Sequence record: OZ035850
From: Escherichia phage vB_Eco_TB37
Length of the DNA stretch: 64,000 nucleotides
Direction: 5' to 3' (one strand)
Shown: one piece after another, positions 23,104 to 45,503 of the stretch
Numbering within the stretch: position 1 is the first letter of the stretch
Layout: each line of letters starts with the position of its first letter
Made by a program: the position numbers and the translations under genes
The notes under the pieces: generated by a model
What the model was told of the DNA's origin: nothing
Databases searched by the model: none
What the model saw: only the letters and a program-made list of their open reading frames with translations

Positions 23104-23134
23104 TTTGTGTTCCTCATGTTATGTCAGTAAGACT

Positions 23135-23164
23135 ACTATAACACAACACGAGGGACTTGTAAAC
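23135..23164 (-). promoter_or_regulatory. Early sigma70-type promoter (-35 GTTTAC, 18-bp spacer, -10 TATAGT) for the 96-aa ORF
   Basis: Hexamers read on minus strand; part of a 53-bp repeat shared with the alc promoter. Confidence 0.65.
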
Positions 23165-25221
23165 TACATCTTGAACTTTTTAGACATTCCGTTGATGTTA
23201 ACCAAAGAAGCCAAGATTTGAGAAACTTCGTTTTCCTCTTCTTTTGATTCTTCTACAAGGAATTGATTAAATCCAGCCATTGGACGAACTTCACCAGTTT
23301 CCATTAAATGGTCGCCATCATATACTGATTCTTCTAATTGTTCAGAAGGAGGAACGATTGTACCTTCGATTAGATACTTGTTATAAGCAGTTTCTTTCAT
23401 AAAGTACGTACTTACTTTATTAATCTTCAGTAAAATTCCACGCGGTAGAATAACTTCAGCTTCTGATGGAAATCCTGATAAATGACCTGGAACGATAACT
23501 TTGATTCGCTCAGCTCCTTTAATTACCATACCCACGCTAGTTTCAGCATCTTCAATGGCATATGTAGAATGACTACCCATATGCATTAAATCTTCTGCAT
23601 CAACGGAACCTTCTCCTTCGCCAGAAAATACTGCGCCGGAATCATCTAGAGCCATATAGTTTTTACCATGCTCACCGAAGATATTTGGTTTAAGTGATGT
23701 CGATACGAAGTTCTTGAAATAGAACATTTTGTTTTCAATGTTATGACGCAAAGTTTTAAAGGTAACTTCTTGTCCACGGTAAAGTGTAGTTCCTGGAGGA
23801 AGAACTGATCCTTTGGCAAAGGCAGAATCCAACGTCTCGATGTGCTTAATAGCTCGTTCCATATATTCTTCACGGGTAGAATCTGGTTTACCCAAAAGGA
23901 ACGAGTTCATTTCAACATATGAATCTGCACAATAATCTTCAATTACATCAGATTCAGCTTGGGTTAATCCTTTTGGAGTTACTTCGGTGCTTGCGTATTC
24001 ATATGCCTGGGCAGCAGATTCATTAATCAATTTATAAATGCCATTCATGACAAATTGAATAATAGCTGTCTTTTCATCTGGCGTAGCTTTAGAACCTTTA
24101 ACTAAATCATTAATAATTTTCTTAATAACATCAAAGCTATTAGAAATATTAATGTCAGCAAGATCGCTTAAAATTTTATCAGTTTTATAATCAAAGAATT
24201 CTTTATTCTTTAAATATTCTTGAGAACCTTGATATGTTATATCGCTCTGCAACTTGATAGATGGATCACGTAAACGTGCATGGGCTAATGCAATATGATT
24301 TCGGAAGTTTTCTAGTTCATAATCGTTAGATTTAAAACGAGAAGCACTTCTCATACCACCGATAGCTCCTTTGCTAAAGTTTGAACCAATCTGGATAACC
24401 CCGGAGTTCATCGGACCTTCTGCTTTATATACCGGAACTTTAGATTCAAACTCTTGATATTTCTTGGCAGCGAAGCTATCACCCTGGAGTGAAGCATCAA
24501 CAGTAGAATATTGAGCTTGTGCTGCTAATCGACGACTAATTTTAGTTTTCTGAATAACAGCTTGATCCGTGCGCTTATCATTTTCTAAAGCAATAGAAGC
24601 AGCAACAGCAACAGCTTTAGGAACAGCATTACCTGTTTTAACGTCTACATAAACATCACCAACCTTTGATTCAACTTTTGTGAATAACTCAGTTGAAATA
24701 GGAGGTACACCTGGAATGTCTTCTAAATTGGCATTTTTACGGTAAACCATAATATATGCATATTTCTTATCATAGTCCCAGATTTCCTTTAAGAGAACAT
24801 ATCGACCTGCTCCTTTAGTACGTACTAAACGGTCAGCAATAACTTGCATTTGACGAGCTGCGCCATTTGTTTTACTCTTTAGTACGCGGAATAGGCATGC
24901 GTCGATTTTATACTGTTTCATTGTTTGAAGAGCAGTATCAAAAACAGCATTAATGACGCCAATTGGATTTCCACCCAAGTTTCTAAGCTTAACCAGCGAT
25001 AATTTCTCGTTGACACCTATCATTACGATATGCATCATTTTATCGCCCGGCTTAACGTTTTTATTTGTATCACCGCCAGAGGTGTATGTACAAAATCTAA
25101 ATCCAGGAAGCACGCTTTCTTCACCGGCTTGAATAGCAAAAATTTGAGGTATTTTATGCTTAGGATTTAAGTTAACAACCGGCGCCGAAGCGCCGTCAAA
25201 TAATTCTGTAATAAGTTCCAT
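23164..25221 (-). CDS. Alt-like ADP-ribosyltransferase paralog, 685 aa
   Basis: N-terminus MELITELFD and C-terminal R-S-E motifs (YRGQ, FVSTSL, EAEVILPRG) shared with adjacent alt; AAGGA RBS, 3 nt after alt stop. Confidence 0.8.
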   Translation of the reverse strand: MELITELFDGASAPVVNLNPKHKIPQIFAIQAGEESVLPGFRFCTYTSGGDTNKNVKPGDKMMHIVMIGVNEKLSLVKLRNLGGNPIGVINAVFDTALQTMKQYKIDACLFRVLKSKTNGAARQMQVIADRLVRTKGAGRYVLLKEIWDYDKKYAYIMVYRKNANLEDIPGVPPISTELFTKVESKVGDVYVDVKTGNAVPKAVAVAASIALENDKRTDQAVIQKTKISRRLAAQAQYSTVDASLQGDSFAAKKYQEFESKVPVYKAEGPMNSGVIQIGSNFSKGAIGGMRSASRFKSNDYELENFRNHIALAHARLRDPSIKLQSDITYQGSQEYLKNKEFFDYKTDKILSDLADINISNSFDVIKKIINDLVKGSKATPDEKTAIIQFVMNGIYKLINESAAQAYEYASTEVTPKGLTQAESDVIEDYCADSYVEMNSFLLGKPDSTREEYMERAIKHIETLDSAFAKGSVLPPGTTLYRGQEVTFKTLRHNIENKMFYFKNFVSTSLKPNIFGEHGKNYMALDDSGAVFSGEGEGSVDAEDLMHMGSHSTYAIEDAETSVGMVIKGAERIKVIVPGHLSGFPSEAEVILPRGILLKINKVSTYFMKETAYNKYLIEGTIVPPSEQLEESVYDGDHLMETGEVRPMAGFNQFLVEESKEEENEVSQILASLVNINGMSKKFKM

Positions 25222-37603: not shown

Positions 37604-37953
37604 TTAGAAAGGTCCTGGATGTCTTCTGCGAACTTGTTGAAGGAGTTGTTGATTTGTTTTTCAACCAATCCTGGCTTACGAGCCACCACATCCGCCTTCT
37701 TTGCATCTTTGCGCAGTTTTTCATTTTCACGCTCAATAGCAGCAATTGCCTCACGATTTTTATTATTCATCGCATCAATATAATTATACTGAATTCGCAA
37801 ATTATTTAATGCTAAGGCGTTTTCATTGGCCGTTTTTGTAATTTCAGTAACTGATGTTTCTAATCTTTCTACCTTATTTTTTAAAATAATAGATGTTCCA
37901 CCAAATACTATTACAAGTAATAGCAAACCTGCTGTCGTATTACTTAATTGCAT
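37600..37953 (-). CDS. Putative inner-membrane spanin (position of T4 pseT.3)
   Basis: 117 aa, N-terminal TM helix (LLLLVIVFGGTSIIL) followed by coiled-coil-like region. Confidence 0.6.
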   Translation of the reverse strand: MQLSNTTAGLLLLVIVFGGTSIILKNKVERLETSVTEITKTANENALALNNLRIQYNYIDAMNNKNREAIAAIERENEKLRKDAKKADVVARKPGLVEKQINNSFNKFAEDIQDLSK

Positions 37954-38450
37954 AAAGTTTTAATAACCTCTATAATATCGTCTTGAGAAAGACCGTTAAT
38001 TAAAATATGATGTTCCGCCGGAGATTTAGAAATTTTAAAGCATGCCGCAACATCTTCTGCCATATCCGATGCGCTACGATTTGGATTACTAATTCCAAGA
38101 CGATGTTTTCCCGTTAAAGGATTAACGATAATATAGCATTTACAGCTATTGATATGAACATTAGGTTGAGTCTGATTAATGAACACTTCACAATCATACT
38201 TAGCGAGTTGATTTTCTAAAAAGACTTTCATCTCCTCAACTGCATCAGGAAGCATATCACGGGCTTGCTCAAGACGACGATTTCGATATTCTTTAATGGT
38301 CGTTTTCCGCTTGACTTGCTTAGCTAAATCTTTCTTAAGATCGGTGATATATCCAACTCGCCGATTTCCTTTAAATACAGAAATCCCATCTGTAGTATCA
38401 CCGTATGCTTCAACGACCATTTCAGTAGTAATAAGCTGCAAATCCATCAT
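37944..38450 (-). CDS. alc: Alc, inhibitor of host transcription on cytosine DNA
   Basis: 167-168 aa, position between pseT region and rnlA, early promoter upstream. Confidence 0.75.
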   Translation of the reverse strand: MMDLQLITTEMVVEAYGDTTDGISVFKGNRRVGYITDLKKDLAKQVKRKTTIKEYRNRRLEQARDMLPDAVEEMKVFLENQLAKYDCEVFINQTQPNVHINSCKCYIIVNPLTGKHRLGISNPNRSASDMAEDVAACFKISKSPAEHHILINGLSQDDIIEVIKTLCN

Positions 38451-38478
38451 AAAGTCCTCATGTTATGTTAGTAAGACT

Positions 38479-38508
38479 ACTATAACACAACACGAGGGAC
38501 TTGTAAAC
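38479..38508 (-). promoter_or_regulatory. Early sigma70-type promoter (GTTTAC, 18 bp, TATAGT) upstream of alc
   Basis: Near-identical copy of the 23135..23164 promoter plus leader. Confidence 0.65.
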
Positions 38509-38511
38509 AAC

Positions 38512-40099
<1,588 letters not shown>

Positions 40100-40126: not shown

Positions 40127-41305
40127 TTAAAAGTATTTTTTAAAACTCATCATAACTTTATCATCAACATCATTATCAATCTGTGCAACAAGGTAAGATG
40201 ACAGTTCTACTTCTTGTGGCGCGGATTGAACATTATCAGAATTAAGATATTCACGAATCCAAGGATATGGATGTTTAACCGGAGCATCGGTAATCGGGCA
40301 TGGAAGACCACACTGTTTCATACGAGATACAGTTAAGTAATCAATAAAGCTCCACATGCTATTTGTATTTAATCCAGGAACATCGCCATCTTTAAATAAA
40401 TGAACTGCCCAATCTTTTTCTTGGCGGTTAACTTCCATGAAAATATCAACTGCTTCTTGTTCACACTCTTGAGCAATTTTAACCCATTCATCGCCATCAG
40501 TGCCAAGTTGAAGTTGACGAATAATATATTGAGTGCCTTTAAGGTGAAGCTGCTCATCACGTGCAATGAACTTCATAATCTTGGCATTACCTTCCATGAT
40601 TTCCATGTTCTTATGGAAGTTAAAGGTACATGCGAAAGATACATAAAAACGAATAGCTTCCAATGCGTTGATTACATGCAAACAGAGGTAAAGAGATTTC
40701 ATTAGCTCATGCTTCCAATACGTCTCATGCTCAATAGCATCTTCAATAACGTCTTCGTCTGCATTAATTTCTTTTTGGTATTCGATATCAGCTTTAGCGT
40801 TTTCCCAATAACGAGTTTTAATCAGAACATCATCATAATAACGTCCAATGGATTCAGCACGTTTCATAATAGCTTCATCTAATACAATTTCATCAAATAC
40901 CTTCGATGGATCAGTATAAAGATTTCGCATGATATGTGTATATGAACGGCTGTGAATAGTTTCACTAAAAGTCCACGTAGCAACCCATGTATCAAGGCTT
41001 GGGTCTGAAATTAATGACATAAGTACAGCAGACGGCGCACGACCCTGAATGCTATCCAAAAGTGATTGATACTTCAGGTTATTAGTAAAAATATTCTGCT
41101 GATACTGAGGAAGTTTATTAAATTGTGCAGCATCCATCATCAAGTTTACTTCTTCAGGACGCCAGAAAAATGATAATTGCTTTTCAGTCAAATCTTCAAA
41201 AACTTTATGGCGTTGAATATCATAACGCGCAATACCAAGACCTGAACCGAAGAACATAGGTTCTTTTAAAACATCAACTGGATTTGTATTAAAAACTGTG
41301 CTCAT
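40127..41305 (-). CDS. nrdB: Ribonucleotide reductase small subunit, uninterrupted
   Basis: 392 aa, di-iron ligand motifs, synteny with nrdA. Confidence 0.9.
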   Translation of the reverse strand: MSTVFNTNPVDVLKEPMFFGSGLGIARYDIQRHKVFEDLTEKQLSFFWRPEEVNLMMDAAQFNKLPQYQQNIFTNNLKYQSLLDSIQGRAPSAVLMSLISDPSLDTWVATWTFSETIHSRSYTHIMRNLYTDPSKVFDEIVLDEAIMKRAESIGRYYDDVLIKTRYWENAKADIEYQKEINADEDVIEDAIEHETYWKHELMKSLYLCLHVINALEAIRFYVSFACTFNFHKNMEIMEGNAKIMKFIARDEQLHLKGTQYIIRQLQLGTDGDEWVKIAQECEQEAVDIFMEVNRQEKDWAVHLFKDGDVPGLNTNSMWSFIDYLTVSRMKQCGLPCPITDAPVKHPYPWIREYLNSDNVQSAPQEVELSSYLVAQIDNDVDDKVMMSFKKYF

Positions 41306-41356
41306 AAATTTTCCGCTTAGTTAATAGTTGGTGACTCGTCCGTGAGTCAAATTATA

Positions 41357-43621
41357 TCATAATTTACAGGATGAACAATCTTCAGCTTTTGGAGTTTCTA
41401 TTTCATAATCATCAGTACCAGAACCATCGCGGGTATTATGATAATAGAAATTTTTTCCGCCAAAATACCAAAAATACAAAAGGTCATCAATCATTATTGA
41501 CATTGGAACCTTGCCTTTAGGGAAGATTTGGGGGTCATAGTATGTATTCGCCGAAGCTGATTGACAAACCCATTTCAGCATAATAGCTACCTGCGTAAGA
41601 TAAGGTTTATTACCTTTCTTAGCTAATTTCCATGTATAGTCGTAAAGGTCTATGTTATGCTCAATATTGGGCACGACTTGATTAAAGGAGCCCTCTTTTG
41701 ATTCTTTAACAGAGACTGGTCCACGTGGAGGCTCGATACCGTTTGTACTGTTAGAAACTTGGGAAGATGACTCACATGGCATAAGTGCTGATAATGTGCT
41801 ATTACGGATGCCAAAGAGCTTAAGGTCTTCCCGCAGCGACGACCAGTCACAAACGTATTTTGGAGCTGCGATTTGGTCAATCTTTTTATTGTACCAGTCG
41901 ATAGGTAATTCGCCTCGAGACCAACGAGTGTCTGAATAATATTCGCAAGGTCCTTTTTCTTTGGCGAGCTTAATGGATGCTTTAATGAGTCCATACTGTA
42001 ATCTCTCAAATAGTTCATGTGTTAAATCGTTAGCATCTTCATAAGAAGCAAAGTTACTTGCCAGCCAAGCTGCATAGTTAGTAACACCTACACCAAGGTT
42101 TCGACGCTTTTTAGCTTTTTCTGCTTCAGGAACTGGATATCCTTGGTAATCCAAAAGATTATCAAGAGCACGAACTTGAACTTCTGCCAATTCATTAATT
42201 TTATCTTGGTCTTGCCAATCAAAGTTATCCAGCACAAATGCAGATAATGTACACAATCCAATTTCAGCATCAGGACTATTCACATCATTTGTTGGAATAG
42301 CAATTTCACAGCACAAGTTGCTCTGACGAATAGGTGCCTTTTCACGAATAAATGGCGTATAGTTATTCGTATTATCAATGAACTGCACATAAATCCTTGC
42401 TGTTCCTGAGCGTTCAGTCATGAGCAATTCAAATAGTTCACGGGCTTTAATGCGCTTTTTACGAATATTAGGGTCTTTTTCTGCTGCTTCGTATAATTCA
42501 CGGAAACGGTCTTGGTCTTTAAAATAAGAATAATAAAGCTCGCCACCCATTTCATGCGGACTGAACAAAGTAATGTAATCATTCTTTCCAAAACGTTCCA
42601 TCATTAGATCATTCAGTTGAACACCATAATCCATATGACGGATACGGTTTTCTTCTACACCTTTGTTATTTTTCAAAACGAGAAGATTTTCAACTTCCAA
42701 ATGCCAAATAGGATAATAAGCAGTAGCAGCGCCGCCACGAATTCCACCCTGTGAGCATGATTTAACAGCAGTCTGAAAATGTTTCCAAAAAGGAATAACA
42801 CCAGTATGGCGTACTTCACCCATGCCAATCTTAGAACCTTCGGCACGAATCATACCAACGTTAATACCAATTCCAGCGCGTTTGGAGATATATTCAACAA
42901 TTGAAGCAGAAGCCTTATTGATAGACTTTAATGAATCACCTGCCTCAATAACAACGCATGAACTAAACTGCCGAGTTGGAGTACGGCAACCAGCCATAAT
43001 AGGAGTTGGTAATGAAATCTGTCGAGTAGATACTGCTTCATAAAAACGAATAACGTGTTTTAATCTATCAACAGGTTCATCTTGATGCAATGCCATTCCA
43101 ATAGTCATAAATGCAAACTGTGGAGTTTCATAAATTTGACCAGTGGTTTTATCTTTAACTAGATATTTTTCTTTTAATTGCATCGCCCCGGAATAAGTAA
43201 ATTCCATATCCCGCTCATGCTTAATTTTTGATTCTAAAAATGTAATTTCTTCGGCAGAATATTTTGACAACAGTTCAGGGTCATATTTACCTTCATTTAC
43301 ACAGTAAGAAATATGGTCAATAAATGAACGTGGTTCATACTGCCCGTAAACATGCTTACGAAGAGCGAACATTAAACAGCGTGCAGCTACATATTGGTAA
43401 TCAGGCTCTTCAACTGAAATAGAATTCGCAGCAGCCTTAATTACAATGGTTTGAATGTCATCAGTGGTCATTCCATCACGGAGATATGATTTAATATTTT
43501 CATATAATTCATAAGGATCTACAGATGTTCCTTCAGCTGCCCAAGATAAAACTTTAATAATTTTTTGTGGGTCAAAGCTCTGAGAAACACCACTACTTTT
43601 GATAACATTAATTAATTGCAT
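41357..43621 (-). CDS. nrdA: Ribonucleotide reductase large subunit
   Basis: 754 aa, ATP-cone N-terminus, catalytic Cys motifs, C-terminal CSSC-type tail. Confidence 0.93.
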   Translation of the reverse strand: MQLINVIKSSGVSQSFDPQKIIKVLSWAAEGTSVDPYELYENIKSYLRDGMTTDDIQTIVIKAAANSISVEEPDYQYVAARCLMFALRKHVYGQYEPRSFIDHISYCVNEGKYDPELLSKYSAEEITFLESKIKHERDMEFTYSGAMQLKEKYLVKDKTTGQIYETPQFAFMTIGMALHQDEPVDRLKHVIRFYEAVSTRQISLPTPIMAGCRTPTRQFSSCVVIEAGDSLKSINKASASIVEYISKRAGIGINVGMIRAEGSKIGMGEVRHTGVIPFWKHFQTAVKSCSQGGIRGGAATAYYPIWHLEVENLLVLKNNKGVEENRIRHMDYGVQLNDLMMERFGKNDYITLFSPHEMGGELYYSYFKDQDRFRELYEAAEKDPNIRKKRIKARELFELLMTERSGTARIYVQFIDNTNNYTPFIREKAPIRQSNLCCEIAIPTNDVNSPDAEIGLCTLSAFVLDNFDWQDQDKINELAEVQVRALDNLLDYQGYPVPEAEKAKKRRNLGVGVTNYAAWLASNFASYEDANDLTHELFERLQYGLIKASIKLAKEKGPCEYYSDTRWSRGELPIDWYNKKIDQIAAPKYVCDWSSLREDLKLFGIRNSTLSALMPCESSSQVSNSTNGIEPPRGPVSVKESKEGSFNQVVPNIEHNIDLYDYTWKLAKKGNKPYLTQVAIMLKWVCQSASANTYYDPQIFPKGKVPMSIMIDDLLYFWYFGGKNFYYHNTRDGSGTDDYEIETPKAEDCSSCKL

Positions 43622-43737
43622 AAGTCCTCAACTTGAAAATCGTCTTTAAACAATCGGTCTGAGAAACACCACTACTTTTGATAACATTAATTAATTGCAT
43701 AAGTCCTCAACTTGAAAATCGTCTTTAAACAATCGGT
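43579..43737. repeat. Perfect tandem duplication of a 79-bp unit spanning the nrdA RBS and first 14 codons
   Basis: Unit at 43580..43658 is identical base for base to 43659..43737. Confidence 0.85.
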
Positions 43738-44017
43738 TAACTATATGAGCTATTATATCACCATGACACGGCTTTGGTTTACATGTGCATCCTAGCCTCA
43801 TTCCACGTAAAGGCTCTAAATGTGCTTTAGTTATTTCTCCGGATTTAATTCGACGTATAAAATCTTTTTTGAATAATTCAATGGCAGCCTCCCGGCTGCC
43901 AGCATCTTTACCGACGTAATTTCCCCAAAATGTACCGCGGTGAATATTAACATCAAAGTCGGATTTGTATTTATTCACTACCCGGCATAGACGGCCCACG
44001 CTGGAATAATTCGTCAT
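43691..44017 (-). CDS. Hypothetical protein with conserved WGNY and CxC...CHGD motifs (position of T4 nrdA.1)
   Basis: 108-aa ORF, ATG start; 3' end lies in the duplicated 79-bp unit. Confidence 0.6.
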
Positions 44018-44234
44018 ATTGTTTTTCCGTTAATACAGTAATATCATAGTAACAATCGGAAGAAGTTTTAACTGTGGAAATTTTATTATCAAAATACTCA
44101 CGAGTCATTTTATGAGTATAGTATTTTTTACCATAAATGGTAATAGGCTGTTCTGGTCCTGGAACTTCTAACTCGCTTGGGTTAGGAAGTGTAAAAAGAA
44201 CAACGCCAGAAGTATCTTTAAATCGTAAAATCAT
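43971..44234 (-). CDS. Hypothetical protein, 87 aa (position of T4 nrdA.2)
   Basis: ORF, ATGA overlap with td stop. Confidence 0.55.
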
Positions 44235-45091
44235 ATTGCCATTTTCCCTTTAATTGCTGGATGCGATTCATAATTTTCAAGGATAAAATCTTTCGGTTTC
44301 ATGTATTCAGTTAACCAGTAAAGCTGTGTTTCGGTGTCACAATTTCCAAACTCTATAGGCCAATCAATTTTAAGTTCACACAGTTCTTTAGGCTCACGAC
44401 GTAAAATTTCTTTACATTGCGCAGTATGATTCATATAGATGTGAGTATTACCACCAGAAAATATCAAATCTCCTGGGATAAGATTACACATCTTAGCCAC
44501 AATATGCGTCAAGGCAGCGTACGAGGCAATGTTGAATGGCAAGCCCAAGAAAACATCTACACTTCTTTGGTACCATTGTAAATCAAGATAACCATTACGC
44601 ACATTAAACTGATAGAACATATGACAGGGCGGTAATGCCATTTGATTGATTTCAGCTGGATTCCATGCTGAAACGATTTGACGTCGATCAGTTGGTAATT
44701 TTTTAATACGATCAATAGTTTCAACTAATTGATCCACACCACCGAAATCACGCCATTGTTTACCGTATATAGGACCAAGTTCACCACTATGATATCCTAG
44801 GTCTTTAGCCTGGTTTTCATAGTTATCGTCCCAAATAGTTTTACCTTGAATAAGACTGCCATGAGTGCGAAGACGTAAATCATTAACATTGGTAGAACCG
44901 GAAATAAACCATAGAAGCTCAGCAATGCATGCATTCCAGGCGAGCTTTTTAGTTGTTATTGCAGGAAAACCTTTTGTTAAATCCCAACGCAATTTAGTAC
45001 CGAACAAAGCAATTGTTCCTGTGCCTGTTCGGTCATCGGTTTCATAGCCATTTTCAAAAATGTCTTTAATTAAATCTTGGTATTGTTTCAT
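44231..45091 (-). CDS. td: Thymidylate synthase, uninterrupted (no intron)
   Basis: 286 aa, active-site PPCH motif, continuous ORF. Confidence 0.93.
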
Positions 45092-45135: not shown

Positions 45136-45483
45136 TTAATACGGTTTAGCATCAAATTTTCTCTCAATTTCAGGCGTGAAATATAATTCTTTACCGCGTT
45201 TGGAAAAGCGACCAATAATATGATAATTATTCTCATCAAACGTAATATTACCAATATCCATAGCTTTCAACCAAATATCGATATTTCTATCCAGCTTTAT
45301 GTCAAAATTCCAATATGGAGAACTATTACCGAAAATACTGCAAGCGGATTCAGTGAAACAACTGCTATAAATCTTGTCTTTAGGAACTACTAATTGATAG
45401 ACACCTTTAATAAACTGAGGACCTTGCCATTTTGGCTGTTTCGTGTCTTTTTCTAATAGAATAGGGTAATAATTAAAATTCAT
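45136..45483 (-). CDS. Hypothetical protein, about 115 aa, in the frd-td intergenic position
   Basis: Track ORF 45136..45495 starts at GTG; ATG at 45483; fills a 410-bp gap between frd and td. Confidence 0.5.
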   Translation of the reverse strand: MNFNYYPILLEKDTKQPKWQGPQFIKGVYQLVVPKDKIYSSCFTESACSIFGNSSPYWNFDIKLDRNIDIWLKAMDIGNITFDENNYHIIGRFSKRGKELYFTPEIERKFDAKPY

Positions 45484-45503
45484 ATTTTCCGCCACGCGTT
45501 ATT

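Follow-up and report, generated by a model that had tools for sequence, protein, structure and literature searches.

A perfect 79-bp tandem repeat across the nrdA start in the deposited genome of Escherichia phage vB_Eco_TB37 is probably an untrimmed assembly overlap

The deposited sequence of Escherichia phage vB_Eco_TB37 (record OZ035850) carries, across the start of nrdA, a 79-bp unit that is present twice, side by side and without a mismatch. We consider this duplication to be probably an untrimmed assembly overlap, most likely absent from the phage itself. We infer how the record was made, i.e. with an overlap of length k left in place, from the structure of the repeat, its uniqueness, the T4-convention position of the record and the fact that 79 is a real final k. 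The sequence analysed, referred to here as the window, is a stretch of 64,000 nt (64 kb) from a T4-like phage (Tequatrovirus), with best matches at 98–99% identity; no record identical to the window was found among the phage matches.

Both a repeat search and direct string comparison bear out the original prediction of a perfect 79-bp tandem duplication across the nrdA start. Positions 43579–43657 of the + strand are identical to 43658–43736 at 79/79 positions, strictly head-to-tail and in two copies, and Tandem Repeats Finder returns a period of 79, 2.0 copies, 100% matches and a score of 318. A perfect match of this length cannot be chance. A scan of the whole 64-kb window gave no other repeat of at least 28 nt with 100% identity, the remaining repeat families being 62–96% identical. 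The unit is made up of 36 nt 5' of the ATG, 14 codons and one base, and the two-copy state creates the joint-spanning sequence …GTTTCTCAGACCGATTGTTT…. Past the 79 nt a single extra base matches (43737, A on the - strand), no more than chance would give; the break points of the duplication thus have 1 nt (A) in common, as expected by chance, and a comparison of sequence and alignments revealed no microhomology or slippage-type signature at the break points beyond this 1 nt. A junction homology of 1 nt does not exclude duplication events that are independent of homology.

The gene coordinates of the original prediction were all correct on the - strand, and its description of a second SD and ATG followed by a 30-codon out-of-frame ORF, with a stop 11 nt past the true nrdA ATG, was confirmed (Table 1). 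The first 14 residues of the decoy product are those of NrdA and the other 16 come from the 3' end of nrdA.1 read out of frame; as 79 is not divisible by three, the decoy ORF leaves the nrdA frame after 14 codons. Its stop lies at +12 to +14 relative to the true nrdA ATG, giving a 14-nt overlap with nrdA, and the sequence AUGCAAUUAAUUAA at the nrdA start contains stops in both alternative frames. At its other end the decoy ATG is overlapped by the nrdA.1 stop by 10 nt, an exact match to the nrdA.1/nrdA overlap in the single-copy relatives. The decoy product has no Pfam match, and an exact-protein look-up in a large assembly collection found no recorded gene that encodes it. A tandem duplication across a gene boundary always leaves both genes whole and makes a chimeric ORF; here copy 1 completes the upstream gene and copy 2 starts the downstream one, and therefore the intactness of nrdA.1 and nrdA is uninformative either way.

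Table 1. Features at the nrdA.1–nrdA boundary (SD, Shine-Dalgarno sequence; positions are those of the window)
Feature	Position	Strand	Basis or remark
nrdA.2 (DUF5496)	44234..43971	-	Pfam
nrdA.1 (DUF4326, 108 aa), intact	44017..43691	-	Pfam; stop TAA 43693-43691
nrdA (754 aa, class Ia ribonucleotide reductase large subunit), intact	41357..43621	-	ATP-cone, Ribonuc_red_lgN, Ribonuc_red_lgC
Upstream copy of 79-nt unit	43658..43736	-	Last 46 nt of nrdA.1 including stop, SD GAGG, decoy ATG, 14 nrdA codons
Upstream SD GAGG	43708-43705	-	In upstream copy of 79-nt unit
Decoy ATG	43700-43698	-	In upstream copy of 79-nt unit
Decoy ORF, 30 codons + stop	43608..43700	-	Stop 43610-43608
Novel junction, …GTTTCTCAGA joined to CCGATTGTTT…	43632..43684	-	Joint between 43658 and 43657; source of junction-only probe
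Downstream copy of 79-nt unit	43579..43657	-	SD GAGG, true nrdA ATG, first 14 nrdA codons
Downstream SD GAGG	43629-43626	-	In downstream copy of 79-nt unit
True nrdA ATG	43621-43619	-	In downstream copy of 79-nt unit

Comparison with related phage genomes, which the original prediction had proposed as a check, leaves the duplication unique to this record. The single-copy state is seen in approximately 500 Tequatrovirus records, whose matches to the 701-nt region cover only 622 nt and fall into two pieces. The alignments of relatives to the window break precisely at the duplication, with 80 nt of the subject used twice. Single-copy phage JK38 is 99.6% identical, over 2.9 kb of nrdA–nrdA.1, to the window minus one copy. 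Proteins identical to NrdA.1 and NrdA occur widely (574 and 221 blocks, respectively), and the 20 loci returned from look-ups of one or the other are 95–97% relatives with one copy each; together with T4 and JK38 these make up 22 fetched relatives, 22/22 of which hold the unit exactly once and the joint never. In the multiple alignment the relatives run on from …CTCAGA into GCTTTGACCC, and the window instead restarts at CCGATTG.

The joint itself was searched for with a 53-nt junction-only probe, designed such that any exact 28-mer has to cross the joint, and this gave 0 matches in 50,697 phage records, 20,395 E. coli records and 72,556 plasmids. The negative result is meaningful because the same program readily reports 40-nt halves of the unit. 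A longer query of 80 nt spanning the joint proved uninformative, being a circular permutation of the unit that matches single-copy genomes in two pieces, and the 53-nt probe was used in its place. For an exact 36-nt junction string, IMG/VR, JGI metagenomes and GTDB genomes gave no match. Two 40-mers specific to the window had no match in IMG/VR either, and the same was true of one of them in JGI metagenomes and GTDB genomes. Given that the relatives are single-copy and that the junction is absent from these collections, the duplication is therefore private to record OZ035850.

The overlap of stop and start codons that had been foreseen for the single-copy state is seen in T4 (10 nt, with nrdA.1 at 142671–142997 and the end of nrdA at 142680), and the same co-oriented arrangement is found in the 22 fetched relatives; in the window the overlap is kept between nrdA.1 and the decoy. 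Judged by its sequence, the native junction (ATGCAATTAA, 10-nt overlap) would be a typical overlapping, potentially coupled gene pair, of the spatially coupled kind discussed in a review of translational coupling (PMC12548453). By the same comparison the decoy ORF of the two-copy state would act as a relay with a 14-nt overlap; nrdA has a good SD of its own, so that coupling may be minor.

The 79-nt unit holds 1 variable site among the 22 relatives, and 7.7% of nearby 79-nt windows are at least as invariant. We rejected the idea of an ultra-conserved element on the basis of these equally invariant neighbours and of a longer run inside nrdA.1. This run, 126 nt at 43761–43886 without a variable site among the 22 relatives, is the longest invariant stretch of the nrdA–nrdA.2 region and exceeds the run that holds the duplicated unit; otherwise the 22 relatives differ from the window by ~0.4–4% across that region.

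T4-like (Tequatrovirus) genomes are circularly permuted and terminally redundant, and because of this they assemble as an apparent circle. A short-read de Bruijn assembler would then yield one contig, broken at random, with the same k bases at both ends. Were such a contig re-opened to the T4 convention, or two k-overlapping contigs pasted together, with the overlap left untrimmed, the old contig ends would become an internal, perfect, two-copy head-to-tail repeat of period k, where k would here be 79, and the decoy start and 30-codon ORF would be by-products without biology. Position 1 of the window maps to ~95.4–98.6 kb, on the + strand, of T4-convention genomes. From this placement, which is taken from relatives and could be a coincidence, the source record seems to have been rotated or re-opened to the T4 convention. 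SPAdes, the commonest phage assembler, uses k values of 21/33/55/77/99/127 by default, and 79 is to our knowledge not among them; the k match therefore depends on MEGAHIT or on a k chosen by the user. At default parameters MEGAHIT gives final contigs named k79_… (PMC6905037), and a T4-like MEGAHIT contig (k119_21604) is present among the fetched relatives.

Repeats of this sort have been described at the ends of contigs. According to the CheckV paper, repeats at contig ends are in many cases as long as assembler k-mers (PMC8116208), and the Phage Annotation Guide lists internal repeats and apparent circularisation as common problems of deposited sequences (PMC8785237). The repeat in the window is like the k-mer-length overlaps that arise on circular or permuted templates (PMC8116208) in being perfect, in two copies and of an odd assembler-k length, and in coming from a type of genome that assembles as a pseudo-circle; it differs from them in that those overlaps lie at sequence ends, whereas the copies here are adjacent and internal and would need the rotation or joining without trimming that we propose. 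What we found is what an overlap of this kind calls for, namely two adjacent 100% identical copies, a length equal to a known final k, and absence from independent, near-identical assemblies. The practical bearing is mainly on quality control: an untrimmed overlap would mean that the record exceeds the true length by 79 bp, that its 30-codon ORF is spurious and that the nrdA start could be annotated at the wrong ATG by gene callers. Such errors could be screened for in rotated phage genomes, where they would show as perfect tandem repeats that are internal, in two copies and of assembler-k length.

The original prediction had named a very recent event or an assembly artefact as the alternatives, and these prove to be the right pair. 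As far as can be read from it, the sequence has nothing that forbids a real duplication, and T4 classically forms tandem duplications, e.g. rII-region duplications and gene 17/18 amplifications. A spontaneous, very recent tandem duplication by illegitimate recombination or by template switching in replication, neutral or nearly so, is a possible but less probable origin of the repeat. The structure is compatible with such an event, both flanking genes being whole and the SD and ATG copied unchanged, and a recent origin agrees with the absence of divergence between the copies; that 79 is not known to be a SPAdes default k also speaks in its favour. Were the duplication real, nrdA.1 would end normally in the first copy, and ribosomes there or at the first SD would make a 30-residue junk peptide; with the decoy ORF ending 11 nt past the true ATG, some of these ribosomes could re-initiate backwards, and the second intact SD and ATG would drive NrdA synthesis independently. 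The stops in both alternative frames at AUGCAAUUAAUUAA and the sizes of the two overlaps (10 nt, native; 14 nt, decoy) are also in keeping with a real duplication, as both overlaps lie inside the range of -4 to -25 nt over which translational coupling is progressively weakened and yet not abolished (review PMC12548453). Overall, nrdA expression should be barely affected by a real duplication, because the native SD and spacing of nrdA are retained and the frames that enter from upstream all stop at most 14 nt from the true ATG, and the locus would then offer a small example of a coupled-junction duplication buffered by stops in all frames and by a duplicated ribosome-binding site.

Set against a genuine duplication is its absence from every other genome and contig searched, including JK38 with 99.6% identity at the locus, together with a decoy product that no recorded gene encodes, break points without microhomology beyond 1 nt, and a period that coincides with an assembler k. 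The classical T4 duplications are likewise head-to-tail in a T4-type genome, and instability is expected of both; those, however, are of kilobase scale, genetically selected and often formed between short homologies, whereas the present one is 79 bp long, with no known selective regime and 1 nt of junction homology. A search of open libraries for short T4 duplications found nothing specific. Persistence is a further difficulty, since in T4-type recombination homology of <50 bp is enough, according to Singer et al. (1982) as cited in PMC2839356, and a real 79-bp direct repeat would therefore be prone to loss. One copy would be lost by homologous recombination unless fixed by a plaque-purification bottleneck; as 79 bp exceeds the homology needed, the repeat could persist only with a recent bottleneck or selection. 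We conclude that the artefact is more likely than a real duplication.

The decoy start and upstream ORF of the original prediction thus stand as anatomy, and find no support as a biological device, being absent from relatives, without an RNA family, promoter or terminator, of a period equal to an assembler k and in an apparently rotated record. A regulatory change that is real and under selection, in which the decoy SD and ATG and the upstream ORF would re-tune NrdA output through ribosome capture or mRNA folding at the true start, and could shift the balance of NrdA to NrdB or the time at which dNTPs are made, is in our judgement very improbable. In its favour, a duplication of such size, if real, needs selection or recency to persist, and in a fold of the isolated RNA the mean unpaired probability of the true SD is 0.03 in the two-copy state versus 0.23 in the one-copy state; the model, however, treats the RNA as naked in a region through which ribosomes translate, and we give the difference little weight. 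The arrangement is known from a single record and shows neither recurrence nor variants in the ~500 relatives, where the number of decoy upstream ORFs before nrdA is 0 (and 0/22 in the fetched loci). The copies are identical and give no sign of upkeep over time, and the unit is, by the 7.7% figure above, not unusually conserved. No Rfam family matches the region of the unit at E<=1, which removes a known RNA element from consideration, and a duplicated promoter or terminator was discarded as well, there being no promoter- or terminator-like site inside the 79-nt unit and counts of such sites being no higher than in shuffled sequences. Leader peptides and upstream ORFs of the attenuation or erm type resemble the decoy ORF in being short and in lying just upstream of, and overlapping, the start of the regulated gene; the decoy ORF differs from them in having no conservation, alternative-structure logic, stalling motif or recurrence, and its peptide is a chimera of two gene fragments. 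That the duplication is maintained, the extra SD and ATG and the relay ORF forming a natural 'switch', reversible by recombination, for the dosage of ribonucleotide reductase in this T4-like phage, we find still harder to credit.

Insertion-related origins were also considered. A target-site duplication was set aside, no element lying between the copies, and the footprint of a homing endonuclease or intron is not supported, since neither td nor nrdB has an intron in this window and the two copies directly adjoin each other.

Several other features of the window were recorded. A 57-nt dispersed repeat occurs on the - strand in two intergenic gaps 15.3 kb apart (23111–23167 and 38455–38511; 96% identical). 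The copy at 23111–23167 follows a 685-aa ORF (stop at 23164), and that at 38455–38511 follows a 386-aa ORF (38512–39672), which ends just upstream of a 168-aa ORF (37944–38450). Each copy contains an early-promoter-like TTTACA-17 nt-TATAGT with TG upstream, and a strong - strand hairpin (-23 and -24.5 kcal/mol; z -3.6 and -3.9). These repeats resemble the mobile promoter-stem-loop (PeSL) cassettes of T4-type phages (PMC2839356). Between 23412 and 27321 there are three collinear repeat pairs (23412/25509, 25025/27119 and 25194/27291), 73–94% identical and spaced by ~2.09–2.10 kb. This indicates two tandem paralogous genes, probably the Alt-like ADP-ribosyltransferase genes that annotations of relatives show as a pair.

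Around the ribonucleotide reductase genes, a 119-aa ORF without a Pfam match (45136–45495, - strand) lies between frd (DHFR) and td; relatives have an ORF of 115–119 aa without a domain match at this position, and T4 has no such ORF. Both nrdB (40127–41305, 392 aa) and td (44231–45091, 286 aa) are intron-less, unlike in T4, and the nrdA–nrdB gap (41306–41356) is 51 nt long and, again unlike in T4, holds no mobE-like endonuclease gene. The relatives vary at td, at nrdB and in the nrdA–nrdB gap, some having I-TevI in td, an HNH_3 (PF13392) ORF that splits nrdB, or a NUMOD-domain ORF after nrdA.
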